This document shows, in pieces, positions 10,928-43,543 of a stretch of DNA of 43,543 bases (the stretch's first letter is position 1; the number at the start of each line of letters is the position of its first letter). Source of the stretch: a virus (lineage: Duplodnaviria > Caudoviricetes); the IMG/VR virus record IMGVR_UViG_3300020044_003057, positions 1 through 43,543 of that record, one strand, 5' to 3'. The position numbers and the translations under genes were made by a program. The notes under the pieces are model-generated. The model searched no databases and had not been told where the DNA came from. It saw only the letters and a program-made list of their open reading frames with translations.

Positions 10928-11411
10928 AGTCGATGACCTGACAGCACACCTGAATCACTCAGAGTTTGCGTTATCGCCACAGGCGTCAGACCCCCACGTT
11001 ACTTTGGACATCCCGCCCCAGTTGGTATGGGAGTGCGCTGCTGGGTTAGAAGACCCTGTTGCTATTGCGCAACGCTTTGGCTTTGAGGGTGAGAAGTGGG
11101 AACGTCTATCCCAGTGGAGTCCGTTCATTACCGCAGTGCAGACACAGCGTGCTGAGTTTGAGCGTAACGGGATGACCTTTCGGCTCAAGGCCGGGCTCAT
11201 GGCTGAGGAGATGATGGCGATGATGTTCAAGCAGGCCATAGCCAACGACACCAGCGTGATGCAGAAGCTATCTGTGTTCAACGCGCTCACGGACGTGGCA
11301 GGGCTCAAAGCACCTAAAGAAGACAAGAACGCTGGGGCAAGCGTTGCACCGAAATTTAGTATCACCATAAACATACCCCAAGGGGCGCAGCCTCTGACCA
11401 TAGATGGCTAA
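10914..11411 (+). CDS. Terminase small subunit (putative)
   Basis: 165 aa immediately before TerL; HTH-like N-half, helical middle, C-terminal FSITINI strand. Confidence 0.7.
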   Translation: MNEFEVDDLTAHLNHSEFALSPQASDPHVTLDIPPQLVWECAAGLEDPVAIAQRFGFEGEKWERLSQWSPFITAVQTQRAEFERNGMTFRLKAGLMAEEMMAMMFKQAIANDTSVMQKLSVFNALTDVAGLKAPKEDKNAGASVAPKFSITINIPQGAQPLTIDG

Positions 11412-12804
11412 CCTTGTCTACACTCCGCCGACATCGGTGGTTCCGTTTCTTACAGCAGACAAGTTTGCTAACTTCATCGTAGGGCCAGTGGGTTCAACTA
11501 AGACCACCGCTGCGCTCATAAAGATCGGGTATGAAGCCAAGCGCATAAAAGCATCGCCTGATGGCATACGCCGCAGCCGAGTGGCAGTCATCCGTAACAC
11601 GCGCCAGATGCTCTGGGATACGACCATACCGGACTTTATCAAGTGGTATCCAGACGGTGAGGCCGGAATACTAGAGAAGACGAACAGCAAGTTTCAGTTG
11701 AAGTTTGACGACGTTGAATGCGAAGTCTTGTTCCGTGGACTGGACGATGCCAATGACGTACGTAGGCTGTTGTCACTACAGTTGACTTTCGGCGTGATGG
11801 ACGAGTTTCGGGAGATTAACCCTGACATTTACAACGCGCTGACGGGTCGTCTGGGGCGATACCCAGATAAGACGATGAATGGGGTCGGGGCTTGCGATGA
11901 CAAAGGCAAGCAGATTCACAAAGTTTGGGGGGCAACTAACCCGCCGGACATGGACACGTTCTGGGAAAAGATACTGACCGAGCCTCCGCAGAATATGCAC
12001 GTCACTATCCAGCCTAGCGGCTTGAGCCAAGAAGCTGACTGGGTGCAGTACCTGCCTGAAGATTACTATGAGAACCTGTGCGAAGGTAAGACAGACGACT
12101 GGGTAGACGTATATGTGCACGGTGAGTTTGGTAAGTCGCTCAGCGGACAGCCAGTGTTTCGGGCGTTTGACCGAGATACACATGTTGCGAAACAGACACT
12201 GACGCATATAAAATTGCAGACGCACCCCTTGATGATTGGGATGGACTTTGGGTTAACCCCGGCCTGTACTATTAATCAGGTGGATGCCCAAGGGCGGCTG
12301 CTGACATTTGCCGATTTAGTATCTGAGGGTATGGGGACTTTGCGGTTCTGCCGAGAGAAACTAAAACCCATGCTGGCTAACCGGTTCCCGGGTATGAACG
12401 TCCTGATTGTGGGTGACCCGGCTGGTCAGCAGAGGGCTCAGACCGATGAGCGATCGGTATTTGATATATTACGGGCTGAGGGATTTAGGGTTATTTCTGC
12501 TAAGTCCAACAGCATTGTTGCACGTATTAATGCAGTTGATAAGATGCTCACACGTACGGTGGATGGTAAACCTGCCCATTTAATTGACCCGTCATGTACA
12601 CACCTTATTGCTGCACTAAGAGGCGGATATAGGTATAAAATCCGGCAAAATGGCGAGGCAGACGACAAGCCAGAGAAAAATTCGCATTCCCACATTGCAG
12701 ACGCGCATCAATATGCGTGCCTACACGCAGACGGTAACGTAACTGGGGATTCTTGGTCGCGCAAAGCGGTTGAAGTCAAGAGAGTAGATTATGTCTGGAC
12801 TTGA
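11404..12804 (+). CDS. terL: Terminase large subunit
   Basis: Walker A GPVGSTKTT, Walker B GVMDE, ATNPP coupling motif, nuclease IGMDFG and HIADA. Confidence 0.95.
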   Translation: MANLVYTPPTSVVPFLTADKFANFIVGPVGSTKTTAALIKIGYEAKRIKASPDGIRRSRVAVIRNTRQMLWDTTIPDFIKWYPDGEAGILEKTNSKFQLKFDDVECEVLFRGLDDANDVRRLLSLQLTFGVMDEFREINPDIYNALTGRLGRYPDKTMNGVGACDDKGKQIHKVWGATNPPDMDTFWEKILTEPPQNMHVTIQPSGLSQEADWVQYLPEDYYENLCEGKTDDWVDVYVHGEFGKSLSGQPVFRAFDRDTHVAKQTLTHIKLQTHPLMIGMDFGLTPACTINQVDAQGRLLTFADLVSEGMGTLRFCREKLKPMLANRFPGMNVLIVGDPAGQQRAQTDERSVFDILRAEGFRVISAKSNSIVARINAVDKMLTRTVDGKPAHLIDPSCTHLIAALRGGYRYKIRQNGEADDKPEKNSHSHIADAHQYACLHADGNVTGDSWSRKAVEVKRVDYVWT

Positions 12805-12853
12805 CACGTAAACCAAAATCGTTTACACCCCCCATATATAAGATGTGACGCAT

Positions 12854-14989
12854 ATGCAACTTGGCTTAAATATTACGAACAGCAACGCGCCGGGAGTAGT
12901 TTCGGCAGGCGGTCTTGTCACTATTAAGTCTATCAAAGGGCTTCAGGACGAGGCAAAGGCCGAAGCACAACGGGCTAATTCTCAGCCTGTAGTACAAGCT
13001 TTGGCTGGGTATATCCGTAAGAAATGGATGTCTGCCATGCTGGCAAAGCAGCAGACTTCTGAAATCAAGATGCTCAAGTCTGTTCGGGCACGGCGCGGGG
13101 AATATGACCCTGATAAGCTGGCTCAGCTACGTGAGCAGGGTAGTGCCACTATCTACATGATGCTGACTTCGAACAAGTGTCGTGCGGCTTCTAGCTGGCT
13201 GAAAGATACCCTTGTCACCGCTGCTGAAGATAAGCCTTGGACTATTACGCCAAGCCCGATGCCAGACCTCCCGCCTGACCAAGTGCAGTCGATCATGGAG
13301 CAGGCGCAGCAGGAAGTGCAGCAGCTATACATGGCTGGTACACCCCCAACAAATCAGCAGGTGCGTGAGCGTTTGCTTGAGATGAAGGACATGGCGCTGT
13401 CCCACTTACAGGACGTAGCCAAGCGCACGGCTGAGCGCATGGAACTGAAAATGGAAGATCAGTTGTATGAAGGCAGCTGGTCTAAGGCGTTCAGCGATTT
13501 CCTAGACGACATCACCACGTTCCCCTCTGCAATCATGAAGGGGCCGGTTGTCCGCAAGCGCCCAAAAATGAAGTGGGTTCCCGGTGCGGCTGGGCATTAC
13601 AAGCTTGATGTAGTTGATGAACTCTGCCTTGAGTGGGAGCGTGTTGACCCATTTAATCTGTATCCTGCTGCGGACATGACAGATATTGACGATGGCGGTG
13701 CGCTCATTGAGCGCCATAAGCTGTCTCGGGCCGACTTGCAAGCCATGATCGGGGTTGAGGGTTACAGCGAGAATGCCATCCGTGGCGTACTGGAAGAATA
13801 CGGCAAGGGTGGTCTGCGCGACTGGATTTACGTTGACATGAACAAGGCTGCGGCTGAAGGCAAGTCAACCATGGGTGTTCAGCAGAACCCATCTGAGCTT
13901 ATCGACGCGCTCCAGTTCTGGGGTAATGTTCAAGGGCAGTTGCTTATCGACTGGGGTCTGACTGGGGAAGAAGTTCCAGACCCACTGATGGATTATCCGA
14001 TTGAGGGCTGGGTCATAGGCCACTGGGTGATTAAAGCCGCAGTAAACCCCGATCCATTGGGCCGCAAGCCGTACTACAAAGCATCCTACGAAGAAGTGCC
14101 CGGTGCATTCTGGGGTAACTCCGTAGCCGACTTGTGCCGTGACACACAGGACATCTGCAACGCAGCCGCACGGTCGTTGGTCAATAACATGTCCATTTCA
14201 TCCGGCCCACAGGTGGTTTACAACATTGACCGACTGCCACAGGGTGAGAATATCACTCAGTTATACCCATGGAAGGTCTGGCAAGTTACGTCTGACCCAA
14301 TGGCTGGCAGTGCGCCCCCAATGCAGTTTTATCAGCCAAATTCGCTTGCACAGGAGCTGATGGCGGTATATGAGAAGTTTGCCACGCTGGCGGATGAATA
14401 CACGGGTATACCTAGGTATATGACTGGCGATAGCCCTGCGGGTGGCGCTGGACGTACCGCTTCGGGTATGTCTATGTTGATGACCAATGCAGGTAAATCT
14501 ATTAAGCAGGTTATTGCCAATATTGATAACGCAGTTATTGAACCCGCGATTAATCGGCTGTATTTTTATAACATGCGTTACGGCTCTGACCCTGACCTGA
14601 AGGGCGATGTTAATTGCCGCGCCCGTGGTGCTGCTTCGCTGGTTCAGAAAGAACAAGCCCAAGTCCGCCAGAATCAATTCCTGCAAATTGCGCTGCAAAG
14701 CCCAGTTGTCCAGCAGGTGGTTGGTATGGAAGGTATTGCGGAGTTGCTACGGCAGTCGGCTAAAACCCTTGACCTTAACCCAGACCTTATTGTCCCCCCG
14801 GTTGAGATTATCAAGCAGCGCATGGTTATGCAGCAACAGATGGCGCAGCAGCAACAAATGATGGCTAACCAAGCAAATGGGCAATCCCAAGCTGGCGGGT
14901 CACCCCCGGCTCCTGCCCCCGGTGCGCAACTTGCAAATGGCGCAGCAGTGACAAATAATTTTGCACCGCAAGCTGGTATCCCCGGTTGA
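12854..14989 (+). CDS. Portal protein
   Basis: About 710 aa after TerL; ERVDPFNLYP, FWGNSV, TGIP motifs; Gln-rich C-terminal tail. Confidence 0.9.
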   Translation: MQLGLNITNSNAPGVVSAGGLVTIKSIKGLQDEAKAEAQRANSQPVVQALAGYIRKKWMSAMLAKQQTSEIKMLKSVRARRGEYDPDKLAQLREQGSATIYMMLTSNKCRAASSWLKDTLVTAAEDKPWTITPSPMPDLPPDQVQSIMEQAQQEVQQLYMAGTPPTNQQVRERLLEMKDMALSHLQDVAKRTAERMELKMEDQLYEGSWSKAFSDFLDDITTFPSAIMKGPVVRKRPKMKWVPGAAGHYKLDVVDELCLEWERVDPFNLYPAADMTDIDDGGALIERHKLSRADLQAMIGVEGYSENAIRGVLEEYGKGGLRDWIYVDMNKAAAEGKSTMGVQQNPSELIDALQFWGNVQGQLLIDWGLTGEEVPDPLMDYPIEGWVIGHWVIKAAVNPDPLGRKPYYKASYEEVPGAFWGNSVADLCRDTQDICNAAARSLVNNMSISSGPQVVYNIDRLPQGENITQLYPWKVWQVTSDPMAGSAPPMQFYQPNSLAQELMAVYEKFATLADEYTGIPRYMTGDSPAGGAGRTASGMSMLMTNAGKSIKQVIANIDNAVIEPAINRLYFYNMRYGSDPDLKGDVNCRARGAASLVQKEQAQVRQNQFLQIALQSPVVQQVVGMEGIAELLRQSAKTLDLNPDLIVPPVEIIKQRMVMQQQMAQQQQMMANQANGQSQAGGSPPAPAPGAQLANGAAVTNNFAPQAGIPG

Positions 14990-15013
14990 CAGTGTAATTT
15001 TTTGGTATATTAT
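14986..15013 (+). promoter_or_regulatory. Sigma70-type promoter for head genes, overlapping the portal stop
   Basis: TTGACA-16 nt-TATTAT. Confidence 0.6.
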
Positions 15014-15032
15014 CAACACAAAGGAGTTTTCT

Positions 15033-15242
15033 ATGAAAGCAATTAGCCCCAAAGATTCCCGCCCATCAGTTGGCGCAAGCGGTAAAGAATATGGTCAAGA
15101 GTCTGCCAAGACTGACGGTATGTCTAAAGGCCCAGCGTCGCAAGGTGCAGGCGGCGATAACGGTAATATCGTTTCGCTAGGTATGCGCGGCGGTGCTGAA
15201 TATTCGGCTGGTACTGCCAAAACCGACGGAATGTGCAAATAA
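15033..15242 (+). CDS. Small Gly-rich protein with duplicated EY....AKTDGM motif (69 aa)
   Basis: AAGGAG RBS before ATG 15033. Confidence 0.8.
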   Translation: MKAISPKDSRPSVGASGKEYGQESAKTDGMSKGPASQGAGGDNGNIVSLGMRGGAEYSAGTAKTDGMCK

Positions 15243-15476
15243 GTGGTTCGTGTCGACGATCGGGTAGCTCGGTGTTTTTCACTGATGCGCACCCAAGACA
15301 TGCAACCGCTGGTAGAATATTTAAAAGCGCGACGCCAAGAGACTCTTGAAAGACTTGGTGAAGCAACAGGTGAAGAAATGAAGAGTCGGCTGCAAGGCCG
15401 ACAAATCGAACTCAAGGAAATCCTTGAGATGGTGGAACAAGGGGAAACCCTGTTTGCCAAAACCCGTAGACAGTAA
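15243..15476 (+). CDS. Small helical protein between portal and scaffold (LQGR..EL..IL motif)
   Basis: 77 aa; position conserved in podovirus head modules. Confidence 0.8.
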   Translation: MVRVDDRVARCFSLMRTQDMQPLVEYLKARRQETLERLGEATGEEMKSRLQGRQIELKEILEMVEQGETLFAKTRRQ

Positions 15477-15591
15477 TCAGACCGTTAAGTCGGAGATTAC
15501 AGTCAAATTTGAAACCCTAAAGTAGCAGACCGTAAGCGAATAGAAACTGACCGTAAAGTCGGAGTTTCAAAGCGTAGTCGGAGCGAAGGAG
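15474..15591 (+). promoter_or_regulatory. Repeated-hairpin RNA element in the scaffold 5' leader
   Basis: Two stem-GAC-CGTWAA-GTC-GG-stem hairpins (15474-15499, 15543-15568) plus a split third copy next to the RBS. Confidence 0.55.
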
Positions 15592-15599
15592 ATAGAGAT

Positions 15600-16541
15600 A
15601 TGGCATTGCCACGAGTAATTCAGCAGCAAATTGATGACGCAGATGCGTATGTAGCCCAGATGAACGGTCAGACCGCACCAAATGCGGAGACTAACCCGAA
15701 TCCAGACCTTCAGTTAGAAGCGAACGACCCGCCGCAACCAGTCTCGCAAGAGCCGCAAACGAAAACGGTGCCCGAAGAAACGTGGGAACGAAAGTACCTT
15801 ACGCTCAAGGGAATGTACGACGCTGAAGTGCCACGACTGCACGCACAGACACGAGAGTTGAACCATCAGGTTCAAAACTTGATTGCTGAGAATGCTGCTG
15901 CCAAAGCCCAACAGATTAGTGCGCCATCGACGACGAAATCGACTCTTATCACTGAACAAGACAAAGAAGCATTTGGTTCTGACTTGTTGGATTTGATTGA
16001 CCGTGCCTCTGAGCAAAAAGTTTCCGAAGTTCGGAATCGCAATGCTGAGTTGCTTTCGGAAATCAGAGAGTTAAAAGGTAAGCTTGGGAACGTGAGTGAC
16101 CGGCAGGTGGTATCTGATAAAGACAGATTCCTAGCCAGCTTGAGCACAAAAGTTCCTGACTGGGAAGCCTTGAATGTAGATTCAGGTTTCTTAGCATGGT
16201 TGGCTGAAGTAGACCCCGTTTACGGACTACCACGCCAGTACGGATTGAATAATGCTTATGAGGCATTTGACGCAGACCGAACGGCTGCGATTTTCAGTCA
16301 GTACAAATCTATGGTTACACCTAAGACCCAGCAAAGAACGCCAAGTCTTTCGAGTCAAGTAGCACCGACTCGCTCTCGTAGTACGCCTGCTCAGAATTTG
16401 GGAACCGAAAAGCCGAACTTTAGCCAAGCTGAAATTTCGCAGTTTTACGACGACTGGATGAAGAACAAGATTACGAACGATGAAGCGGTGAAGATTGAAG
16501 CAGAAATCCATGCCGCCTACGCTGAAGGACGAATTCGATAG
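15600..16541 (+). CDS. Capsid scaffolding protein
   Basis: 313 aa; acidic/Pro N-term, coiled coils, C-terminal EI.AAY.EGRI; directly before the capsid; AAGGAG RBS. Confidence 0.85.
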   Translation: MALPRVIQQQIDDADAYVAQMNGQTAPNAETNPNPDLQLEANDPPQPVSQEPQTKTVPEETWERKYLTLKGMYDAEVPRLHAQTRELNHQVQNLIAENAAAKAQQISAPSTTKSTLITEQDKEAFGSDLLDLIDRASEQKVSEVRNRNAELLSEIRELKGKLGNVSDRQVVSDKDRFLASLSTKVPDWEALNVDSGFLAWLAEVDPVYGLPRQYGLNNAYEAFDADRTAAIFSQYKSMVTPKTQQRTPSLSSQVAPTRSRSTPAQNLGTEKPNFSQAEISQFYDDWMKNKITNDEAVKIEAEIHAAYAEGRIR

Positions 16542-16591
16542 TCCCCAAAGCATGGTGGCCTAAGCAAATCATTTTTAATTAGGAACATACC

Positions 16592-17614
16592 ATGTCTACT
16601 ATTACCGCAGCAGCAGCCTATCCCATTAACTCGGGTGGTTTTAACACCCCCGGCGGTCAGGTTGCTTATTCTGGCACCGCTTATTCCGGTTCCTTTATCC
16701 CCGCCCTCTGGTCTGGCAAGCTGGCCCAGAAGTTCTATGCTGCCACCGTCTTTGGCGAAATCGCCAATACCGACTGGCAAGGTGACATCACCGGCATGGG
16801 CGACACCGTGATTATCAACACGATTCCCTCGATCACGATCAACAGCTACAGCATCGGTCAGAATCTGGCTTATGAAGTGCCTGCTCCTAGCACTATCCAG
16901 TTGGTTATCAACAAGGGTAAGTACTTCGGCGTGAACGTTAACAACGTGCTGGAACTGCAAGCTAAGCCTAAATTGATGGACATGTTCACCAATGACGCCG
17001 CCATGCAGATGAAGATTCAGATCGACAAGGACATCTTGTACACGAACTTCAACCAAGGTGCTGCTGCTAACCAAGGTGCTACCGCTGGTGCTATCTCCGG
17101 CTCGTTCAATCTGGGTACTGATCTGGCCCCCGTTACGTTGACCGCTTCTAACATCCTGCAAAGCATCACCGCTTTGTCCAGCGTGTTGGATGAAAACAAC
17201 GTGCCTGAGACTGACCGTTGGTTGGTTATCACCCCCACTGAGCGTCAAATCCTGATGCAATCGAACTTGGCTCAAGCCCAGTTCATGGGTGATGCTGCTA
17301 GCGTTCTGCGCAACGGCAAGATCGGTATGATTGACCGCTTCACCGTGTACGTTTCCAACCTCGTCCCACGCGGCGCTGCTGGTAAGACCTACATGAACCC
17401 CAACACTGGTACAGACGCCAATTTGACCAGTGCTCTGAAGCGTCACGCAGTTATCGCTGGTCATAAAGCAGCCATCACCTTTGCATCGCAAATTGCCAAG
17501 GTTGAGTCCCTGCAAAACCCCAACGACTTCGGTACGCTGGTTCGCGGTCTGAACGTCTATGGCACCCAAGTAGCTCAGGCCAACGGTCTGGCTCTCTTGC
17601 AAGTCGCTGGTTAA
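16592..17614 (+). CDS. Major capsid protein (P22 coat-like, HK97 fold)
   Basis: FIPALWSGKL...GDTVII...FGTLVRGLNVYG; strong codon bias. Confidence 0.92.
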   Translation: MSTITAAAAYPINSGGFNTPGGQVAYSGTAYSGSFIPALWSGKLAQKFYAATVFGEIANTDWQGDITGMGDTVIINTIPSITINSYSIGQNLAYEVPAPSTIQLVINKGKYFGVNVNNVLELQAKPKLMDMFTNDAAMQMKIQIDKDILYTNFNQGAAANQGATAGAISGSFNLGTDLAPVTLTASNILQSITALSSVLDENNVPETDRWLVITPTERQILMQSNLAQAQFMGDAASVLRNGKIGMIDRFTVYVSNLVPRGAAGKTYMNPNTGTDANLTSALKRHAVIAGHKAAITFASQIAKVESLQNPNDFGTLVRGLNVYGTQVAQANGLALLQVAG

Positions 17615-30085: not shown

Positions 30086-30361
30086 ATGTTTGACGTTACA
30101 GCCATAAGTCCCGACGATAAAACTGCCAAGCATTTCATTTATTATTTTGCTTGGTTCTGGTCAGTAACCTCGGTTATTTACTTCTTCTGCGTGACGTTTA
30201 TCCATCTGCCGGAAGGTGGTAGGGACTTCGCCAATATCATTTTGGGCTTTCTGTTGGGCACAGCCGTTGCCACCATCATTTCGTTCTTTTATGGGTCGAG
30301 CAAGTCGAGCAAAGATAAAACTGATGCCATGATGAAAGTCGATGATGTTAAGCCTGTTTAA
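30086..30361 (+). CDS. Putative holin (2 TM)
   Basis: Two hydrophobic helices, FFYGSS, charged C-tail; next to spanin and endolysin. Confidence 0.7.
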   Translation: MFDVTAISPDDKTAKHFIYYFAWFWSVTSVIYFFCVTFIHLPEGGRDFANIILGFLLGTAVATIISFFYGSSKSSKDKTDAMMKVDDVKPV

Positions 30362-30815
30362 CCCTTGGGTAATCCTTGGCATCGTGTTGACGGTGCTAAG
30401 TAGCTTTAGTGCGGGGTATTACAGTGGTAAACAAAACGAGTATGCGCGCCAGCAAATTGAAATTGCTAGTTTAAATCAGCAAGCACGAGAAACAGAACAG
30501 CGTATGGTTGAGGTCGCCCAGACGTACGCTGAAACTTTAAGGAAATCCAACGATGTTGCAAAAGCTAAAGAAACTAAGCTGCGTACTGATATTGCCACTG
30601 GTGAGCGCAAGCTGTTCATTCCTATCCAAGCCCCCACCTGCCCAGTACATACCCCCGCAGATACCACCGTTGCCAGTGGAAATACAGAAACAAGAGCCGA
30701 GCTTGACTCAGGAATTGCTCAAGCTCTTGTCGATCTCGTCAGCCGAGGAGATCAAGCCATCCGCAACCTTAACGCCTGCATCGACCAGTACGAAAAAATG
30801 AGGAGTTGTAAATGA
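30342..30815 (+). CDS. Rz-like inner-membrane spanin
   Basis: N-terminal TM, coiled coil, GD.AI..LNACIDQY C-term. Confidence 0.85.
   Translation: MMLSLFNPWVILGIVLTVLSSFSAGYYSGKQNEYARQQIEIASLNQQARETEQRMVEVAQTYAETLRKSNDVAKAKETKLRTDIATGERKLFIPIQAPTCPVHTPADTTVASGNTETRAELDSGIAQALVDLVSRGDQAIRNLNACIDQYEKMRSCK
30553..30801 (+). CDS. Rz1-like outer-membrane lipoprotein spanin embedded in Rz (+1 frame)
   Basis: Basic N-term, hydrophobic stretch, VSAS-C lipobox-like site, Pro-rich mature part; AAGGA upstream. Confidence 0.7.
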   Translation: MLQKLKKLSCVLILPLVSASCSFLSKPPPAQYIPPQIPPLPVEIQKQEPSLTQELLKLLSISSAEEIKPSATLTPASTSTKK

Positions 30816-33604: not shown

Positions 33605-34030
33605 ATGAAATCTGTGGTATACGGGCAGGACAAACGAGTACTTGGCTGGGTAGCAGACAGGACAAATGAAGGCAGCTTCGGCTCGGGTAGTATCGGGATA
33701 GGGCTAGAGGAAGACGGTGAACTGATTGCGGGTGTTGCGTTTAATATGTACACAGGAGCTTCAATTTCCATGCACGTTGCGGCTGTACCGGGTAAGCGCT
33801 GGATGACCAAGGACTTCCTGTGGCGTTCATTTGCATACCCGTTCATCCAACTTAAATGCAACCGTATCACTGGACTTGTACGTGAAGATAACCTAATTGC
33901 ACAACGGTTTGACGAACACTTAGGTTTTAGGCGAGAAGGGCTACTACGTGGCGCTTGCCTTGATGGTTCCAATATGGTTATTTACGGCATGTTGAAAGAT
34001 GAGTGCCGATTTCTGAGGATTAAAGTATGA
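33605..34030 (+). CDS. GNAT-fold protein in the morphogenesis module
   Basis: F.YPF.QL.C.RITG.V..DN..A.RF.EHLGF..EG.LR...D.VIYGML. Confidence 0.85.
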   Translation: MKSVVYGQDKRVLGWVADRTNEGSFGSGSIGIGLEEDGELIAGVAFNMYTGASISMHVAAVPGKRWMTKDFLWRSFAYPFIQLKCNRITGLVREDNLIAQRFDEHLGFRREGLLRGACLDGSNMVIYGMLKDECRFLRIKV

Positions 34031-34905
34031 GTAAAGGTAATACAGACGCCCCGGCAGCAGACCCGAATATTGGTCTTGCTCAAAAACAAATGGCTCAGCT
34101 AGCCACTGAGCAATGGAATACATTTAAGACTGATATTTATCCTGAACTTAAAAGGGCTACGGCTGCTCAAGAAACTAGGCTTCAAGGCGCTTACGAACAA
34201 GACCAGACAATTTCTAAAGAGCAGCAGGCTCGGGCAAAAGAAAACTACGACCTTTATAAGACTGAAGGTCTACCGCAATTACAAAAAATACGGGCTGAGG
34301 CTGAACAATACAACGAAGGCGCGTATCAAGAAGAGATGGCACTTCGTGCTGGTGCTGATGTAGCCACGGCTTCTGAGAACCAGCGTCTACAGATGGAGAT
34401 GCGCAATCAGCGGTACGGTATTGACCCAACTTCTGGAGTTGCCCAAGGGCAAAGTAACGCTAATGCAGTCATGACCGCCGCCGCACAAGCCCAAGCGCAG
34501 AACCAGACTCGCCAAGCGGCACGTGAAATCGGTCTGCAAAAACTAAGCAATGTGTACAACGCTTACGCAGGCTTCCCAGCACAGGGTAATGCTGCCACTG
34601 GACTCGCCCTTGGGGCAAATGCACAAGGTACTGCTGCCGGTCAAGCATCAGTGGGTAACGCTACTAACACATCGTCTACCTATAACGCTGGTGTTGGCTC
34701 AAATTCATCTGGCTGGAACTCAATTGGTCAGTTAGGTGTACAGAAGTATCAAGCTGATGTTGGTGCATTTAAAGCTCAAACAGAAGCTGAGTCTGCGGCT
34801 TCTGCCGGTCTTGGTAGCGCAATTGGTGCAATCGGTGGCGCATATCTTGGTTCTCCTGCTGGCGGCGCAGCAATTGGCAATTTGTTTAGCAAAAAAACAG
34901 CTTAA
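34027..34905 (+). CDS. DNA ejection (internal virion) protein
   Basis: Ala/Gln/Gly-rich, RYGIDPTSG, C-terminal GxxxG helix. Confidence 0.7.
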   Translation: MSKGNTDAPAADPNIGLAQKQMAQLATEQWNTFKTDIYPELKRATAAQETRLQGAYEQDQTISKEQQARAKENYDLYKTEGLPQLQKIRAEAEQYNEGAYQEEMALRAGADVATASENQRLQMEMRNQRYGIDPTSGVAQGQSNANAVMTAAAQAQAQNQTRQAAREIGLQKLSNVYNAYAGFPAQGNAATGLALGANAQGTAAGQASVGNATNTSSTYNAGVGSNSSGWNSIGQLGVQKYQADVGAFKAQTEAESAASAGLGSAIGAIGGAYLGSPAGGAAIGNLFSKKTA

Positions 34906-34925
34906 GTACGGAAAGGTACTGAATT

Positions 34926-37517
34926 ATGGGATTTAATCTAGGTGCATTTGCTGGAGGTATTGCCCAAGCTGGCGTATCGTCTTATAAAACCCAGCAAGAA
35001 ATTGCATTAAGGCAAGCTGCTGAAGAACGGGACAAAATTCGCTTTGCTGAGGAACAGCGACAAATTCAGCAACGGATTGGCTCTGAAGAAATTCAACGTC
35101 AAGCTACTATCCCTTCAACTGGCGGTACATCACTTGATGAAGTTGCAAGAGCGCTTCCTATTTATGCAGGGGCTGCCAATGGCGGACGAGACTTACCTGA
35201 AAACTATGGTGCGACGTTCAAAGAAACGTTTGATAAGCTAACACCCCAACAACAAGAAATGGTATTGCGTGGGTATGGCGATGCGGCAACTCCCGGTGGC
35301 AGGGTAATTGCTGACGCTGCTAAAGGCGATACTTCTATGGTAGAGGGTGAAGAAGTTCCATTTGTACCTAAAGATAAAGAACGGTTTGCAGGACTTGCAG
35401 CCCTTAATCTAGGTTCAACCTCAGTACGTCAAGGCGCTGAGGGTAACTACGCAGTCCAGCCCATAGCTGATGAGAAAGATATTATTGCTAACCACAAAAG
35501 GTTGGCTATGCAGTCTGGTAACCCTGTTGCTATTAAAGCAGCCCAAGACGCAGAAATTTCTTATTTAACTCGTGAAGTCGGTAAGCAAAATATTACACTT
35601 AATGACTACAACATTAAGAAAGCTGAATCAGCCCAAAAATTTAAAGAAGATTGGGTTAAAGAAATGCAAAGGGCTAAAGAAGACCACTTTGAGTTAATGA
35701 AAAAAATTGACACAGCATTGACTGACCCAAATGTTTCTTTGGACAACCTTGTGTCTAAATTTGGGCCACAACTTAAAGACGTTACAGGTCAATCGTATTC
35801 TGTTAAAGACGGGAAAATTGTAACTGTTGGAGCTGATGGTGTCCCTACTATTGTTGCTTCAGATATTAATCAAGCTGGGCAATTACTAAAAGAAGCTGCG
35901 GCAAATCATTTCGGGTTAGATTTCCAAAACAGGGTTTTGTCAAAAGGTTTGTTTGAAACACCGGCTGATTTAGCTGCTTTTATTAAAGACAAACAAGATT
36001 TTTTTATTAAAACTGGCACATTAGCAACAGCAAGATTATCTGCCCAAGCTGCTCAAACAAGTGCCAATGCTGCTGCTTCGAATGCAGCAACTAGTGCAAG
36101 CGAACTCCAACAAAAAATAACTGCTGGCCTCTTTCCAGCACAAGCAAAAAATTACGAAGCTATGGGAAGGGCTGCGGAGAAAAATGCTGATTCTGCTGCT
36201 TCGAATGCAGCAACTAGTCAATCAGAATTTCAAGCAAAAAAGGACGCTGGTTATTTCTCAGCACAAGCAAAACATTGGACAGATATGGGGGCAGCCGCAG
36301 TAACAAATGCCGCTAATACAAAAGACCATTACGCCTATTTGAAACAACAAGCGGAAGACAAGAAAGCCCTTGATGCAGAAACACGTGCGGACATTACCAA
36401 GATTACCGATGCTTATGAAAAATTAAGCCCAGCAGATCAGCAAGGCGAAAAAGGTCAAGCCTTAATGGTACAAGGAGCAATGACTATCGCTAAAAAGTCT
36501 GGGGATATAACTGGCGTTCTTAATGCTATGAGAAAACCTGACAGGTCAGGGGCAGAAGCTGATTGGTCTGCTATTGAAAAAAGTATGTACGCAAATAGTA
36601 CACCACCAGATCAAATTGCTGCTGCAAGAACTAACTTTTTTGCTTCACGTGGTTTTGCACCAACCGCTGCTGTTAGTGCTGTTATGTCAGGTGTGATGCC
36701 GGATGGTAAACCGCTTACTGAAGCTGATGTAGACAACTTTAATAGGCAGTTTCCAAATAGTAAAGTAGATAAAGCTTCATTGTCGTGGATTAAGCCGGGT
36801 GCTAGTTCTGCTACGACTACTACACCTTCTGCTTTACCTGCTAGTACCAAGCCTGCCGCATCTAAATCTGCTGTAGAACGCGGAATACCACTTAGGTCAA
36901 CTGATGGCGGCAAAACATACACAGTAGATGTCCCAGAAACAATAAAAGACCCGAGCGTTAAGTACTATAAGGAAATACCAAATCCGGCGTATAAAGAACT
37001 AAACGGGAAAACTTTTAAATCTGCGGCTGAAGCTGAAGCTGCTTATAACGCTGCTACTGGTAAAACTGCAATTCCTACCAGTTCAACAAAAATATCAAAG
37101 GAAGATCAAAAGATAAAAGACGTTGACCGCGTCGGTATCCTTGCAAAAGAACTTAGAGATGCAGAAGCAATGGCAGCCGACAAAAATTTACCTGAAGCAC
37201 AACAGGCACGAGCGCAAGCAGATATTGCTTCTTTGAAGCGTGAGCTTGGTCGTGAGCCAAAATCAAAAGATACCGCAATACCTACATCTACTGCGTCTTC
37301 TAAACCTGCCGAGAATGCAACCAGACTTGCTTCACAAAAAGAAGCTAGCGAATCAGCTCTTCGCCTAAAAAGAGAAGACTTATTTGTTGCTATGGATACC
37401 GCAGAAAAACGCTTAGCTAAAGACTCAAAAAATGGGGCGCTTGAAGATAAGTACAAAGCCGCCAAAAAAGAGTATGATGATTTTATGCGCGATAACAAAT
37501 TAAAGCGAAGCGAGTAA
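34926..37517 (+). CDS. Internal virion / ejection protein (863 aa)
   Basis: MGFNLGAFAGGIAQ amphipathic N-term; helical Ala/Lys-rich body; 41-aa internal duplication. Confidence 0.75.
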   Translation: MGFNLGAFAGGIAQAGVSSYKTQQEIALRQAAEERDKIRFAEEQRQIQQRIGSEEIQRQATIPSTGGTSLDEVARALPIYAGAANGGRDLPENYGATFKETFDKLTPQQQEMVLRGYGDAATPGGRVIADAAKGDTSMVEGEEVPFVPKDKERFAGLAALNLGSTSVRQGAEGNYAVQPIADEKDIIANHKRLAMQSGNPVAIKAAQDAEISYLTREVGKQNITLNDYNIKKAESAQKFKEDWVKEMQRAKEDHFELMKKIDTALTDPNVSLDNLVSKFGPQLKDVTGQSYSVKDGKIVTVGADGVPTIVASDINQAGQLLKEAAANHFGLDFQNRVLSKGLFETPADLAAFIKDKQDFFIKTGTLATARLSAQAAQTSANAAASNAATSASELQQKITAGLFPAQAKNYEAMGRAAEKNADSAASNAATSQSEFQAKKDAGYFSAQAKHWTDMGAAAVTNAANTKDHYAYLKQQAEDKKALDAETRADITKITDAYEKLSPADQQGEKGQALMVQGAMTIAKKSGDITGVLNAMRKPDRSGAEADWSAIEKSMYANSTPPDQIAAARTNFFASRGFAPTAAVSAVMSGVMPDGKPLTEADVDNFNRQFPNSKVDKASLSWIKPGASSATTTTPSALPASTKPAASKSAVERGIPLRSTDGGKTYTVDVPETIKDPSVKYYKEIPNPAYKELNGKTFKSAAEAEAAYNAATGKTAIPTSSTKISKEDQKIKDVDRVGILAKELRDAEAMAADKNLPEAQQARAQADIASLKRELGREPKSKDTAIPTSTASSKPAENATRLASQKEASESALRLKREDLFVAMDTAEKRLAKDSKNGALEDKYKAAKKEYDDFMRDNKLKRSE

Positions 37518-37520
37518 ATT

Positions 37521-40500
37521 ATGCCAATAGATTGGAATGAGTTTATTAGCAAACCCGCAAGTGGGGCAGCGAAGTCTAGTACTACAGGCGTTAATTGGGG
37601 TGAGTTTGTAAACCCGCCTGCTCCTCGTGCCGGTGGTATTACCTCAAACCAGTTCTCAGCTTCTATTGACCAGTATCAAGCGGGGCTTTATGGCGTTGGC
37701 GAAGCCGTAACTGGTGCAGTAGGCGCTAATAGCATAAGTGATTGGGCAAAGCAAAAGCGGGAAGAAAATGAACGTGAGGCTGAAAGAGCCTCAGCTCGTG
37801 CCCGTCAACTTGGGGCAGTGGATTCTTGGGAAAACGTCCACGGCATAGGCGATTTTGGTAGCTTCGCCAAGAGCATGGCTGTCCAATCAGTGCCCTACGC
37901 TGTTGAAGCATTTACAGGCGGACTGGAGGCGCGTGCTCTTATGGGTGGTACTCGTGCTGCTTTGTCTGAGGCGCGTGCCGCTTTGCAAGCAGGTAAGGCT
38001 GCCGGAGATGCAGCAGAAATTGCCCGCGCAACACAGGCTGTAGCGCAAGCTGAACGCAGCTTAAATATTGGGTCGCTAGTAGGTGGCGCAGCGCAATCAT
38101 ACCCATCCTCTGTTGGCGATATCCTTCAAAACCAACGAGAGCAAACTGGGGGTAAAACTGATTTAGGCGCGGCTGGTTTATTAGGTATACCTTATGCGGC
38201 ACTTAATGCTGTCGGCCCTGAAGCAGCATTATCAAAAGGAACTTTGTTCCGCAATACCATTAACCTCCTTGATCGCCCCGGCGGCATTGCTGGTGGGTTG
38301 GCCCGTGCTGGTGCGACTGCTGTAGGCGAAGGTTTCAAAGAGGGTCTTTCGGAAACCGGTCAAGAAATGCTGAACCAAGCAGGCCGTATGGCTGTGGATG
38401 ATAAGGCTCAGTTCTTTAGCCAAGATGCCCAAGATCGGTATAAAGAATCCTTTATTGGTGGTGCTACCCTTGGTGGGCTTATGGGCGGTGCTCTTGGTGG
38501 TTGGCGTCGAAGTGAAGGCTCCAAATCAGGTAATGATATCCAGCAGGCCTTTACTCAACCGCAGACCAGCGGAACACCAGTGACTGGGCAAACCCCACCA
38601 GCATCACCCAACACTACAGTTACTGCGCCGCCTGCTCCTCCAAATGTAGCACCCGGTGGGGCAGCCGTAGTTCCCGGTCAAACTGCTGCGACTAATCAAA
38701 CGGGCGCACCTATCACGCCGCCATCGGCTCCAGCAGTCGTAGGCGGTACAACAGCAGTTGCTCAAGGGGCACAGGCACAAACCCAAGCTCAGTTTGCTGC
38801 ACAGCAGCAACAACAGATTCAAAAACAACGTGAGAAAGTAATTGACCAGTTCGGCCTGCGTGGTGAGAAAGAAGGCACGGGCCAGTTCTTTAACCGCCCC
38901 ATCTTTGGCCCAGCTATTAACCAAGTTGCGGATGCACTCGCACCTATTGCAGCTAAGCTAGACCAGCAAGAAGCCACTGTGATGGACGCTATCGTCCAAG
39001 CAGATAAAGCCACTGGCGGTAAGTTAGTGAACTTCAAGTTCAATGGCGACAAGATTCCCCAGTCTGTACAGAAAGGCGTTGAAGCCGTACTGGCTGTTGC
39101 AAACAAGTTTCAAATCGGGCATGTCGCGTCAGCCGAAGAAGCAGCCCAAATCCTCAACACGCTATCTCAGTCTGCCAAAGGCGCTGAGCTTGAGCAAATC
39201 AATGCCATCCACCAAGTCTTGACAGGTAAGGACACGGAAGGTTATGTTACGGCGCAAGCCCCTAAACCCACGAAAGGAAAATCAAATGTACGACAACAGC
39301 AATTGCCAGAGCAAGTGCCTGCCGGGCTGGGAACAGTACCAGAGCAAGGCGGAACAGTCCAAGGCAATGGCGGACTCACTGGGCTTTTACAACCCGGCGC
39401 AGTTCAACCCATCGGGACAGGAAGTAACGTTGGAACAACGACTAACCAGCAAGCTGGACAGCCATCAGGAGAAGGAGTACGGCCTAGCGCCAATATCGCC
39501 GCCGACACCGGTAGTCCTGTCCTTACGCCGCAAGTAAATCTCACAGCACCAGCGCCGGAAACTAATCAACTTCTGCGGCAAGTATTTGGGGGCGAACCTA
39601 CCTCCGGCGAACTGGTTACCCCTACTACTATTGGTGGCCCTGTCCGGGCTGCTCAGCCACAAGCAACTGGAGCATTAAATGAAGCAGGTACAACCCAAGG
39701 CACTATGGGTCGGAGGCAAGCACCCGGTCAACCTAGCCAAGCCAGCCAACCCCGTGTGGATAGACAATCTATACAAAATGGCGGCGCAACAGGCGCAGTC
39801 GTCGGCGCAAGGCAGTACGACCAGCGTCTCCAATACTATGGAACCGACCTTAGCCACATCTCCAGCCCCCGCCGCATAGAGGTTATTCAGCAGCTATTAC
39901 TTTCTGTACTTAGCCCGAAACGCGATAGCTCAACACCTGCGGAAACCCGTGCAGAGATTCTGCGTCTTGCTCTTATTGAGCAATTCCCCATGAAGGAAAT
40001 CGCAGAACTTACAGGTATTAAGCTAGATACAGTAAGCAAGCAATTGCAGCGCATGGGGGTTGCACTTAAGGACGGTGAGTTCCAAGTCGTTCGCCCTGCA
40101 TTTGCTGAGCAGATGGTTGCAAAAGCCGAAGCCTTCCGTTCCCCTGAATTCCCTGATGGTATTGGCGTTCACGAACTCAAAGGTTTGTACTCTACTCGGT
40201 ATGAGGGTAAAGAAAAACCCACTACTAACTTAGCTGAAGAACTGGAAGCTGGTGAGCAAGAAGGTGACCGCAGCAAGCTATTGGCTGAAGAACGTTTTGG
40301 CGGTGAGACTGGTGAGGCTCAGTCCATGGGGACTATTGGTTCTGCTGGTGGTAGCCAAGGTGCCGTTGACTCTGATGAATCGAAAGCTCTGTCTAAGGTA
40401 GAAAAGTTGCAGAAGCAACTTGATGAAACTCCAGATACAGACGTAGCAGGCAAGGCCAACTTGTCCAAGCAATTGGCTGCCGCATGGAGCGCTTACGAGA

Positions 40501-43500
40501 AAGAACAGAAAGACCGTGCCAAGACTGGTGAAGCTAAAGTCAGGTACAAGGAAGAGAAAGCCACCGAGTTAGGTGAAACCGAAGGGGAAGAAGATGCCGT
40601 TCAAGTCGAAAGCGCAGATGAGGGAAATGTTCAAGAACCAGCCGGAGGTGGCGAAGAAGTGGGCAAAGCTAACGCCGAACCCCAAAAGCCTGCCCGAGCA
40701 CGTAAAGCCAAAGCAGAAAGCAAGCCTGCTGAAGAAACCGCTGGAAAAAAACCGTGGGAAGGCGTAACTCGTAAAACAAAAGGTACTATTGAACTGGTCG
40801 ATACTTCTTTGTTTGATGGGGTCAGCCAAAGAAACAAAGCAGACACCAGTACGCCTGAATACGCAGCGCTAAAAGCCAGCATTGCGGAAACCGGGATAGT
40901 TGACCCAATTACAATTACCACAAACTCGTTGGGCAAACCAGAAGTATTTGAAGGCAACCACCGCCTACAAGCTGCAAGAGAACTAGGCATTAAGCAAGTT
41001 CCTGTGGTGTTGCATTCCCGTATCAATCAATCTGAGTCGCGCCCTGTAGTTGGAACAAAACCAAGCAGTCTTTTAGCCAAGCCAGAAATAAAAACTGCTG
41101 AAGAACAGTGGACAGCGTTGGCTGACCAGTTCCCGCAGATGCCCCCTTATGCAACACTGAACAAAGATGAAAAGATTCGCTGGGATGATGTGGCAGAGCG
41201 TGGGGTTGCTAATCTTGCGGCTGCCGACAAAATCCTTAGCACGGTTGTCAAAGCTGCCCCTGCCGAAAAGGTGGAAACACCGGCTGCTGCTGGAACTACT
41301 GAAGCGGTAAGCCAAATCAATGGCACTGATGAGCAGAAGAAGACTGCCCAAGAGTTAGCAGACTCCAAGGGCGGTTCTGTTGTATGGCAGGAAGGTGATC
41401 TTGCCCTTATCCGTGGATACTCAGTACTAACTGGTCAGCCCGTTTATGCTGGGGCCAAAGGTAGTTCTATCACTAGGATAGATATTGAGTCCTTCACTGG
41501 TAGCGCATTTACTCCCGTCGAGAAGGCCAAGCTAGTCGGAGCTAAGCAGCAGGCCGAGAAGCAGGATGCAGAGAAACACGCTGCCAATCCATTTGTTAAG
41601 TTTGACTCTAACGGGGTAGCCGTATCTAAAGGTGTGTCGCCTCAACTGGCAGGGGTCATCTCCGGCTGGAAGCAGATGCTCGGCATTAAGGCCAACGTCT
41701 ACGTAACCACTATTGAGGATGCGAAAGCAGACAAAGATAATTTCACCGGCCCTCAACGCGCTGTTGGGTCTGCGGGATTAGATGCTAACGAAGCTGGTTC
41801 GATGCGTAAGCTGTCAGACGGTAGCTACTACATTGCGTTTACCAAGGGAACTAGTGTCGCCAAGATGCTGGAAACCATGGCGCATGAGATTGGGCATGTC
41901 CACGAAAAGGAAGCCTTCGCCAATGCAAGCCCTGAAGACCAAAAGGCAATTCGGGCTGAATTTGAAAAATGGAGAGCTTCTACCAAAGGCAAGTCGGCAA
42001 AAGAAGTAGTCGAGTCTCTGCGTGCTAGGGCTACAGGCCGAAGCACTAAGGGCTTTGAAGGTAAAACTTCTGAGGATATGACCGCTTACTGGAAGTCCTT
42101 CAGTGAGTGGTACGCTGACCAAGTGTCCCGCTGGGCTACTACTTCTGAGAAGCCACTGACCGTTGTAGAGAAGTTCTTTGCCCGGTTGGGTGCAGCGCTC
42201 AAGAAGTTTTACTACAGCCTCAAAGGCCAAAAGTATTTGCCAAGCGATACCATGAAGTCGTTCTTGGACAAGATTGCTGAGGGCACGCTTATCATTGACG
42301 ATAAATCTGCCGAGGCACTTGATAACGAGTTTGCTAGTCAAGCCCTGTTTGTTGGTGTTAAAGGGGTTGAGCAACGCGGCATGACCGATAAGCAGGTAAG
42401 TAACCTGACCACTGCCAAACTGATGGATGCAACTGGTGCGCTACGTTCTGATGTTTGGTATGACACTGGTTGGTTGCGTGGTGCTGATAGTCAGTGGCGC
42501 ACTGAGATTTCCGATAAGAACGCTAAGCTAAAAGCACCCCTACCTAATTTTGGTACTGGGAAACTTGGCGACTTGTTAGACCACCCAACTTTGTACAAGC
42601 TATACCCACAGCTTACTGGCTACACACTAGTTGTAGACCCGAAGATGGAGCCTAATAGCGCTGCATTTATACCTGACCAGCAGGAAATTCACATAGCTTC
42701 TGTGCAGAGTTCGCCAGTTACAACGCTACTGCATGAAGTCCAGCACGCTATTCAAGAGATTGAGGGCTTTGGTAAAGGGGCAAATCCAAAAGAAATGGAT
42801 ATGTTCAACGTCAATGCAGCAGATAAATTTGCAGCAGCTTCCCATGTATTTGGGTATGTAAGCCCTGAAGCCCAAGAAGCTATTGCTAAGTATCGTGCTG
42901 CTGTTGAGGCCAAGCACTTGGCTGTTGTTGCCCGAGATATTGGTAGCTTCAAGACTGTTGATGAAGAACGTGCAGCAGTCCAACGCACGATGGATACAGA
43001 TAAAGCAGCGCGTAGGGCTCTAGGCGAAATGCTAACTGTTTTAGATAGCACCGAAGGCAAGTTTAAGCAGCAACTGTACAGCATGGTTTCCGGTGAGATT
43101 GAAGCCCGTGACGCGGAGGCTCGCCACCAATACGACGATATGCTGCGCAGGCAAGTAGTCCCCGGCGAAGCTGAAGGCTTTACACCTGAGACTCAGTTAG
43201 TCTATGACAAGGCTAGTGAGTCATACATGAAGGTTGGCAAGACCGCCGACGAACGTGCTCGGGAGCAGATCAGCAAACTACCACCCAAGTGGCAACCCGC
43301 TGCACGGACAGTAACTACTACCTTGATGCACACGCTGCAAAAGGCGGGGCTAGCTTCCATGATTACTGAAGATGTAATCAATGCTGCCACTAAGTACATG
43401 AAGTCGGCGCAGAACTATTTGACTGCCCAATACGCACGTCAGGCTACCCGGCTTGCCCATGAACTCAAGATTGAGAAAATCCTTCAGCAGTTTGATAAGC

Positions 43501-43543
43501 TGCCTGAGAACTTGAAGGGTACTGGTAGGGGTAGCGTGAACGA
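37521..43543 (+). CDS. Giant polyvalent internal virion protein (>2000 aa, truncated by window end): HTH, ParB-like, zincin HEIGH, LPD23-like HEVQH
   Basis: ATG 3 nt after the previous stop; frame open in all segments translated by hand (MPIDWNEFISKP...); absent from the track, consistent with no stop in the window. Confidence 0.9.
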   Translation, partial: MPIDWNEFISKPASGAAKSSTTGVNWGEFVNPPAPRAGGITSNQFSASIDQYQAGLYGVGEAVTGAVGANSISDWAKQKREENEREAERASARARQLGAVDSWENVHGIGDFGSFAKSMAVQSVPYAVEAFTGGLEARALMGGTRAALSEARAALQAGKAAGDAAEIARATQAVAQAERSLNIGSLVGGAAQSYPSSVGDILQNQREQTGGKTDLGAAGLLGIPYAALNAVGPEAALSKGTLFRNTINLLDRPGGIAGGLARAGATAVGEGFKEGLSETGQEMLNQAGRMAVDDKAQFFSQDAQDRYKESFIGGATLGGLMGGALGGWRRSEGSKSGNDIQQAFTQPQTSGTPVTGQTPPASPNTTVTAPPAPPNVAPGGAAVVPGQTAATNQTGAPITPPSAPAVVGGTTAVAQGAQAQTQAQFAAQQQQQIQKQREKVIDQFGLRGEKEGTGQFFNRPIFGPAINQVADALAPIAAKLDQQEATVMDAIVQADKATGGKLVNFKFNGDKIPQSVQKGVEAVLAVANKFQIGHVASAEEAAQILNTLSQSAKGAELEQINAIHQVLTGKDTEGYVTAQAPKPTKGKSNVRQQQLPEQVPAGLGTVPEQGGTVQGNGGLTGLLQPGAVQPIGTGSNVGTTTNQQAGQPSGEGVRPSANIAADTGSPVLTPQVNLTAPAPETNQLLRQVFGGEPTSGELVTPTTIGGPVRAAQPQATGALNEAGTTQGTMGRRQAPGQPSQASQPRVDRQSIQNGGATGAVVGARQYDQRLQYYGTDLSHISSPRRIEVIQQLLLSVLSPKRDSSTPAETRAEILRLALIEQFPMKEIAELTGIKLDTVSKQLQRMGVALKDGEFQVVRPAFAEQMVAKAEAFRSPEFPDGIGVHELKGLYSTRYEGKEKPTTNLAEELEAGEQEGDRSKLLAEERFGGETGEAQSMGTIGSAGGSQGAVDSDESKALSKVEKLQKQLDETPDTDVAGKANLSKQLAAAWSAYEKEQKDRAKTGEAKVRYKEEKATELGETEGEEDAVQVESADEGNVQEPAGGGEEVGKANAEPQKPARARKAKAESKPAEETAGKKPWEGVTRKTKGTIELVDTSLFDGVSQRNKADTSTPEYAALKASIAETGIVDPITITTNSLGKPEVFEGNHRLQAARELGIKQVPVVLHSRINQSESRPVVGTKPSSLLAKPEIKTAEEQWTALADQFPQMPPYATLNKDEKIRWDDVAERGVANLAAADKILSTVVKAAPAEKVETPAAAGTTEAVSQINGTDEQKKTAQELADSKGGSVVWQEGDLALIRGYSVLTGQPVYAGAKGSSITRIDIESFTGSAFTPVEKAKLVGAKQQAEKQDAEKHAANPFVKFDSNGVAVSKGVSPQLAGVISGWKQMLGIKANVYVTTIEDAKADKDNFTGPQRAVGSAGLDANEAGSMRKLSDGSYYIAFTKGTSVAKMLETMAHEIGHVHEKEAFANASPEDQKAIRAEFEKWRASTKGKSAKEVVESLRARATGRSTKGFEGKTSEDMTAYWKSFSEWYADQVSRWATTSEKPLTVVEKFFARLGAALKKFYYSLKGQKYLPSDTMKSFLDKIAEGTLIIDDKSAEALDNEFASQALFVGVKGVEQRGMTDKQVSNLTTAKLMDATGALRSDVWYDTGWLRGADSQWRTEISDKNAKLKAPLPNFGTGKLGDLLDHPTLYKLYPQLTGYTLVVDPKMEPNSAAFIPDQQEIHIASVQSSPVTTLLHEVQHAIQEIEGFGKGANPKEMDMFNVNAADKFAAASHVFGYVSPEAQEAIAKYRAAVEAKHLAVVARDIGSFKTVDEERAAVQRTMDTDKAARRALGEMLTVLDSTEGKFKQQLYSMVSGEIEARDAEARHQYDDMLRRQVVPGEAEGFTPETQLVYDKASESYMKVGKTADERAREQISKLPPKWQPAARTVTTTLMHTLQKAGLASMITEDVINAATKYMKSAQNYLTAQYARQATRLAHELKIEKILQQFDKLPENLKGTGRGSVN
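39286..39537 (+). CDS. Candidate overprinted gene A (+1 frame, 83 aa, MYDNSNCQSKC...)
   Basis: AAAGGA RBS 7 nt before the ATG; lies in a low-complexity linker of the giant ORF. Confidence 0.45.
   Translation: MYDNSNCQSKCLPGWEQYQSKAEQSKAMADSLGFYNPAQFNPSGQEVTLEQRLTSKLDSHQEKEYGLAPISPPTPVVLSLRRK
39679..39879 (+). CDS. Candidate overprinted gene B (+1 frame, 66 aa, MKQVQPKALWVGGKHPVNLAK...)
   Basis: GGAG RBS 6 nt before the ATG; linker region of the giant ORF. Confidence 0.45.
   Translation: MKQVQPKALWVGGKHPVNLAKPANPVWIDNLYKMAAQQAQSSAQGSTTSVSNTMEPTLATSPAPAA
40594..40767 (+). CDS. Overprinted small basic protein of MPFKSKAQ type (+1 frame, 57 aa)
   Basis: GAAGGGGAAG RBS; MPFKSKAQMREMFKNQPEVAKKWAKLTPNPKSLPEHVK resembles a recurring free-standing phage peptide. 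Confidence 0.7.
   Translation: MPFKSKAQMREMFKNQPEVAKKWAKLTPNPKSLPEHVKPKQKASLLKKPLEKNRGKA

Follow-up and report, generated by a model that had tools for sequence, protein, structure and literature searches.

The window, by which we mean the whole 43,543-nt stretch analyzed here, is a 43.5-kb linear virus record (IMG/VR record IMGVR_UViG_3300020044_003057; Duplodnaviria; Caudoviricetes) that is approximately 75% complete. It carries terminase, portal, capsid, tail-fiber, lysis, and internal-virion genes, and ends within a giant gene for a polyvalent-type virion or ejection protein (Table 1), which we call the host gene. The host protein contains a sigma70-r4-like HTH (residues 808-844), a ParB-like domain (1113-1166), and LPD23 (1622-1671); LPD23 scored above cutoff (E 7e-13) and ParB_N just below it, and relatives of the host carry ART-PolyVal, LPD38, and LPD39. 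By its annotation the host gene is of the polyvalent type, being large, multi-domain, furnished with LPD/ParB-type domains, and placed in a late context. The genes before it stand in the usual ejection-protein order, and gene order together with the PHROGs labels of related hosts suggests that the host protein is packaged and injected with the DNA. In one relative (L139, 5824-12788) the N-terminal part of the giant gene stops at 726 aa; next come a lysis cassette and then a separate large gene. A phrog_858 gene (“starvation-inducible transcriptional regulator”) lies among the tail genes of the window, at 27752-28123.

Table 1. Positions of the genes and signals discussed in the text, in window coordinates.
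Feature	Position	Strand	Remarks
Head module: TerL, portal, scaffold-position gene, major capsid protein	11404..17614	+	
Acetyltransferase-like gene, 292-aa virion structural protein, 863-aa gene	33605..37517	+	Upstream of giant gene
Giant polyvalent-type virion/ejection protein gene (host)	37521..43541	+	2007 codons, open at contig end
Nested gene B, 83 aa	39286..39537	+	+1 frame; Shine-Dalgarno AAGGA 39274-39278
Nested gene C, 66 aa	39679..39879	+	+1 frame; Shine-Dalgarno GGAG 39669-39672
Shine-Dalgarno of A	40581..40590	+	GAAGGGGAAG; AAGGGG 6 nt upstream of ATG
Host-frame reading of A	40593..40766	+	Low-complexity A/E/G/K/V linker; open in all relatives, without purifying selection
Nested gene A, 57 aa	40594..40767	+	+1 frame of giant gene; TAA 40765-40767

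Three small genes, A, B, and C, lie inside the host gene. A preliminary description of this DNA had placed a ribosome-binding site and an ATG at the head of a 57-aa basic ORF within an ORF of more than 2000 aa, had read the main frame there as an acidic, Gly-containing linker, and had pointed to two other +1 ORFs; the coordinates, the peptide, and the host-frame translation all agree with it, and the two other ORFs, B and C, are real. The A peptide is basic (16 K+R vs 4 D+E; net charge +12), with a conserved core at residues 1-37 and a variable, Lys-rich tail. Its open frame and ATG are weak proof by themselves, because when the host stretch was recoded synonymously 20,000 times, 29% of the recodings retained both. 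Chance does not account for the peptide, though. When an HMM was made from 32 free-standing family members, it gave 70.3 bits to the first 36 codons of A, bearing out the likeness to free-standing small phage proteins that the preliminary description had proposed; none of 2000 recodings reached that score (maximum 39.6), and in a six-frame search of the window with the same HMM A was the sole match (E 9e-22; next 1.6). The Shine-Dalgarno sequence of A pairs with the anti-Shine-Dalgarno at -7.9 kcal/mol, placing it in the top 0.7% of 1863 other +1 ATGs from 30 host genes, and is stronger than the median of 23 plus-strand gene starts in the window (-4.5). Directly downstream of A (40800-41040) lies a ParB-like domain that aligned relatives lack at that place; it is a recent domain insertion.

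Gene B is present in all 37 loci found with the host domain (see below), one copy being cut by a contig end, and its Shine-Dalgarno preserves the GGA codon for Gly of the host frame in 29 of 29 cases. The 45 loci found with B itself are all nested and, as far as checked, belong by contig or context to this phage group. Fold and Atlas searches with B gave no usable match and PHROGs gave none; its structure model is of low confidence (pLDDT 65). For C, compared with 14 aligned relatives, pN/pS was 0.54 in the +1 frame versus 0.95 in the host frame. The C slot is held in relatives by a variable small gene, usually starting directly after the stop of B, and other relatives have unrelated small ORFs there, just downstream of B. 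The segment between B and C (39540-39680) is missing from most relatives; L003, L088, and L104 have a similar segment, followed by a different +1 ORF of 74-75 aa with a Shine-Dalgarno, and slot C therefore looks like an exchangeable cassette. We rejected a candidate internal promoter upstream of B (TTGACA-18-TATGTT, 39219-39248): TTGACA occurs in 4 of 29 relatives with the motif, and 2 such promoter sites were found against 2.4 expected.

Retention and selection in relatives of the host gene

We measured retention of A by searching with the host domain upstream of it (aa 405-575), A itself not being the query. This found 37 viral loci, of which 33 were long enough to reach A and 4 ended before it. 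A is intact, with its ATG and an open +1 frame, in all 33; 7 of these were contigs already found through A, and the new ones all keep it (26/26). A Shine-Dalgarno of -4 kcal/mol or better precedes 30 of 30 copies, compared with 12% of the 1863 other +1 ATGs. An N-terminal host query found 27 loci, and we examined the 10 with contigs outside the 37-locus set: A is present in 4, the contig ends early in 2, and A is absent in 4 (29-47% identity). Whole-record searches covered 27 records with a nested copy, five of them bearing terminal repeats, and each record gave exactly one match. The same search of five distant host-gene relatives, two of them at least 90% complete, returned no copy, nested or free, and gene A is therefore not universal. 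No sister genome carrying the predicted free ancestral copy was found in whole-record searches, and 24 fragments with the capsid gene of this group gave 1 match, a nested copy. From the whole-record and capsid-fragment searches together we conclude that the nested copy is the sole copy in this phage group. A metagenome scan yielded one locus, ending upstream of A, and a search for a close cultured relative of this phage found none.

Selection acts on the nested frame. Over 36 codons of 30 distinct copies, dN/dS was 0.24 in the nested frame versus 1.59 in the host frame (all pairs, which are not independent; one copy with a codon deletion excluded), and mean amino-acid identity was 78% in the A frame versus 59% in the host frame. 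Fifteen disjoint nearest pairs hold 134 differences, of which 90 replace a host residue while being silent in A and 20 do the reverse, with 23 replacing in both frames and 1 silent in both; these are simple pairwise counts, with transition bias outside the model. None of the 134 differences makes a stop in either frame, where about 6 would be expected in each. Host-frame pN/pS in 30 windows along the host gene was 0.39-0.76 in 26, was 0.19 in one poorly filled window, and exceeded 1 in 3 only, two over B and one over A. Given dN/dS of 1.59 against 0.24, the host frame at A is a passenger linker. It is still kept open, because the TTC codon at Phe3, used in 41 of 41 nested copies versus 30 of 43 free ones, avoids a host stop.

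The similarity to free-standing proteins, the start signals kept by relatives, the comparison of dN/dS between frames, and the stop counts, all of which the preliminary description had named as checks, uphold the nested gene. A is almost certainly a real gene under selection. It very probably initiates on its own, and selection on its frame makes translation likely.

The MPFKSKAQ family and its host genes

A protein search with A gave 21 matches among 46 candidates, with identity of up to 90%, and a profile search gave 4508 representatives of clusters at 50% identity (E ≤0.001). The family spans phages of several phyla as well as bacterial chromosomes, far wider than any host gene. Residues M1, P2, F3, A7, Q8, and A20 are invariant, and an AlphaFold2 model of A has helices at 6-15 and 17-26 (pLDDT 84). 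Free-standing members in cultured phages are Mycobacterium phage Barnyard gp9 (36 bits on the family profile), Streptomyces phage FlowerPower gp48 (41 bits), and an unannotated ORF of P-RSP2. Barnyard gp9 and FlowerPower gp48 belong to phrog_1375 (PHROGs v4; labelled as of unknown function), which was matched by 19 of 22 aligned members (best E 2e-8) and weakly by A alone (E 0.02; nothing at 0.01). The phrog_1375 members have the core in common with A, but are separate annotated genes, whereas A is unannotated and lies wholly inside another gene.

Pfam returned no match for A and its 21 relatives at E up to 1. Identity with DUF3008 (PF11450) was rejected, as no Pfam match supported it and the sole lead was an Atlas score of 0.84, with 37% of members carrying DUF3008. 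Fold and sequence searches of solved structures with A gave nothing usable, and a viral structure library returned only uncharacterized family members; an Asteriusvirus “virion structural protein” reached 6 bits on the family profile and was dropped as a member. A chromosomal subfamily from soil-bacterial genome bins (Gemmatimonadota, Acidobacteriota, and others; L314, L317, L328, L330, L332, L336, L340, and L342, at about position 4001 in each) has a six-residue insertion and long K/R tails. Its neighbors are housekeeping genes, such as those for recA, isochorismatase, and carbonic anhydrase, so the module is also in use away from phage heads.

Nested copies recur. Three scans gave 231 loci (best 80 of each viral scan; some contigs repeated), and 58 of these, about a quarter of a biased sample, are nested, all in the +1 frame and none in +2; 45 lie in giant frames and 13 in frames of 300-999 codons. 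The remainder of the 231 comprise 152 free copies, 13 loci with only a long antisense frame, and 8 that were unparsed. Doubtful among the 58 are L338, where a long GC-rich frame runs over a chromosomal-type copy, and L361 and L362, where the frame enters terL. Most hosts of nested copies are giant virion or polyvalent proteins. The 35 hosts that we sampled fall into 12 clusters without a BLAST link across 600 aa on either side, and by this comparison the cassette appears to be nested in about 11 unrelated host genes, always in +1. The preliminary description had proposed that the gene was absorbed whole, and the small family is indeed spread far more widely, as absorption would have it; the nesting is more than a one-off event, however, as it recurs in unrelated host genes.

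One host cluster, from another phage group, is a gene of about 400 aa that lies between the portal gene and one for a virion structural protein, and its position suggests a scaffold. In L059, L300, L305, L318, L321, L329, L331, L341, L393, L396, L411, and L412 the family copy lies 50-75 codons into this gene. In cultured Elemovirus, the +1 frame of a 3694-aa structural gene holds a 42-aa copy that is unannotated (68 GenBank records; ATG at position 54224 of NC_055852). Over 30 aa it shares 90% identity with copies in the ~400-aa gene. At the DNA level the identity sets in at the ATG, and between the two hosts nothing but the 42-residue host-frame reading matches significantly. A second Elemovirus copy, in the giant gene of NC_055852 (L189:6605-6637), stops after 10 codons while its host-frame reading persists, and is likely a decayed duplicate. 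The Elemovirus giant gene also holds, at L189:5987-6109, an ATG-started, Lys-rich +1 ORF of 40 codons, preceded by the same AAGAAG context as the family copy. Elsewhere, a free-standing copy (L017:4214) starts 11 nt past the stop of a gene of more than 1400 aa, an arrangement that is possibly a step towards capture.

Possible function and origin of the nested gene

Among 37 non-giant loci, a terminase, portal, protease, or capsid gene is nearby in 24 and none in 13 (98 neighbor ORFs scanned, most of them cut to 380 aa). The head module of the window itself holds no family A copy, though free copies elsewhere occupy such modules. The family module begins at residue 1 in 126 of the top 150 profile matches. 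These matches include 65 fusions of at least 100 aa, in 52 unrelated cargo clusters, and in all 65 the module lies within the first 25 residues. It is joined to DUF5661 in P0090, P0115, P0197, P0201, and P0219, and in other fusions to ParB-like or kinase-like P-loop domains. After the module, K-x-A occurs in 42 of the 65 fusions versus 16.1 in shuffles, L/I/V/F-x-E in 11 versus 6.5 (a weak enrichment), and GG in 5 versus 0.8, all three motifs having been picked after viewing the sequences; K-x-A may be a protease site. A predicted complex between A and the major capsid protein scored 0.00, which is uninformative either way. On this genomic evidence we put a role of A in the phage head at about an even chance.

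A may instead be a real nested gene for a general nucleic-acid-binding or DNA-condensing basic protein, resembling a histone tail, that acts within infected cells or on packaged DNA without docking specifically to the prohead. The charge of A would suit such a protein, as would the K/R-rich tails found throughout the family and the long-tailed chromosomal subfamily of Gemmatimonadota and Acidobacteriota with its non-phage neighbors. Yet the conserved part is the 37-residue two-helix core with its invariant residues, not the tail, and this core stays extreme N-terminal on 52 unrelated cargo types, like a targeting leader. We consider the nucleic-acid-binding reading possible but somewhat unlikely; it is compatible with head targeting, and the two are not exclusive.

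We favor as likely the reading that A is an internally initiated head protein on a mobile two-frame cassette, belonging to a widespread family and not arisen de novo by overprinting; its work would probably be in the assembly or packing of the head. Internal initiation on the late mRNA would yield the 57-aa protein, while the other frame of the ~110-nt core would serve as a stop-free hydrophilic linker; because that frame is such a linker, recombination could place the core, in frame and harmlessly, within flexible parts of virion proteins. The nested cassette would have replaced a free-standing copy, which other phages keep beside terminase, portal, or capsid genes. The two-helix core probably docks inside the prohead or onto DNA undergoing packaging, and by likeness to the T4 internal proteins the module may bring itself or its cargo into the prohead. 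Such docking would account for the module serving unrelated cargo proteins as an N-terminal leader.

The cassette likely moves between phages, because the same two-frame cassette sits inside unrelated genes. In-frame capture would be easy, since the host-equivalent frame already lacks stops in 16 of 43 free copies. When two subtypes of A are placed on host trees, at least 5 changes are required, the pattern that exchange would produce. On a peptide tree of 40 columns the starred branches force just 2 changes between nested and free states, and origins are not separable; the giant hosts without BLAST links could be old homologs that have diverged beyond BLAST. Overall, we consider mobile capture of the cassette quite probable.

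Under a third account, A was born once by overprinting in an ancestral giant virion gene and later escaped as free genes, the nested state being ancestral and vertically inherited. All nested copies are in +1, the frame most used by de novo internal overlaps (as given in excerpts of PMC8227390), most hosts are the same kind of gene, and B, known only nested, may itself be such an overprint. Against this, the family is much wider than any host gene, the unconstrained frame is that of the host, and the same subtype occurs in non-homologous hosts with identity confined to the cassette. The coding sequence alone accounts for the +1 bias, as the share of free copies open in the other frame indicates. 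We regard birth by overprinting as improbable, and a moved cassette as much more probable than one born in place.

Programmed frameshifts are common in phage structural genes, and the +1 frame is already open for 7 codons upstream of the ATG of A in the window, so that ribosomal frameshifting might give a shortened giant protein with a basic C-terminal tail. We think this very unlikely: M1 is invariant, a Shine-Dalgarno lies at initiation distance in 30 of 30 copies, the module begins at residue 1 in free and fused members alike, and the upstream sequences have no common slippery motif, only purine richness. That A is a dead remnant or an assembly artifact, kept because the host protein needs the stretch, is scarcely credible, for although the truncated second Elemovirus copy shows that copies can decay, all 33 independent contigs have A intact, selection on the nested frame contradicts the idea, and the Elemovirus copy is present in 68 records of cultured phages.

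Going further than this, and only tentatively, we suggest that a ~110-nt mobile two-frame cassette, with a widespread prohead-targeting module in one frame and a harmless linker in the other, may hop between flexible parts of virion genes that are unrelated to each other. Across many tailed phages, giant ejection-protein genes and scaffold-position genes would thereby come to carry hidden operons of small genes (A and B, with C as a variable slot).

Comparison with known systems

In phage lambda, Rz1 is embedded inside Rz, and the Rz1-type inner gene encodes an outer-membrane lipoprotein with a signal peptide and a lipobox Cys. We rejected a Rz/Rz1-type spanin identity for A, which has no Cys and no hydrophobic stretch; the Rz-like gene of this phage is at 30342-30815. 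E of phiX174, inside D, is another embedded same-strand phage gene (excerpts of PMC8227390). Like both of these, A is a same-strand gene wholly inside another, with its own start; unlike them, its cassette occupies unrelated hosts, and it has no lipoprotein signal. In the prevailing view, viral overlaps mostly come from overprinting, which pairs one old frame with one new, and the new frame usually has no remote homologs, according to the same excerpts (PMC8227390). In overprinted genes the inner frame is new, whereas in A the inner frame is the older and wider family and the outer is the passenger: 4508 clusters stand against a host domain found in 37 viral loci, and the inner frame is not the younger, narrower one of a de novo overprint. 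An old, widespread gene inside unrelated hosts with a passenger frame would be a second route to nested genes, besides overprinting.

The host of A resembles the polyvalent proteins (Iyer et al., 2017, PMC5512222, in part) in being a giant multi-domain late-region protein with LPD23 and ParB-like domains. A word search of the main text of PMC5512222 finds neither “overlap” nor “disordered,” and as far as such a search shows its description of polyvalent proteins is without nested genes. The excerpts of PMC7077304 likewise hold nothing bearing on the arrangement. In the main texts of the literature searched we found no description of the nested arrangement or of the family. The family may be listed in small-gene catalogs, for example a 2022 survey of small phage genes. 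Being nested, such copies are invisible to gene callers, including in the 68 GenBank records of cultured Elemovirus, and protein-level studies of polyvalent or ejection proteins will misread these “conserved linkers.” The copy in cultured Elemovirus makes translation and function testable now.

The closest functional parallel that we draw is to phage T4, in which the internal proteins IPI-III and Alt have a common N-terminal capsid targeting sequence of ~10-20 residues that is cut after L/I-x-E (excerpts of PMC9026906 and PMC7411985). As far as those excerpts go, both the T4 sequence and the A module are short N-terminal modules common to unrelated cargo, often followed by a short recurring motif, and both have their genes among head genes. 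They differ in that the A core, at ~37 residues with two helices, is longer than the T4 sequence and also exists alone; in what was compared the two have no sequence similarity, and targeting by A is proposed by analogy. If the A module does direct cargo into the head, phages would have a second portable tag for loading capsids, in addition to the one of T4.
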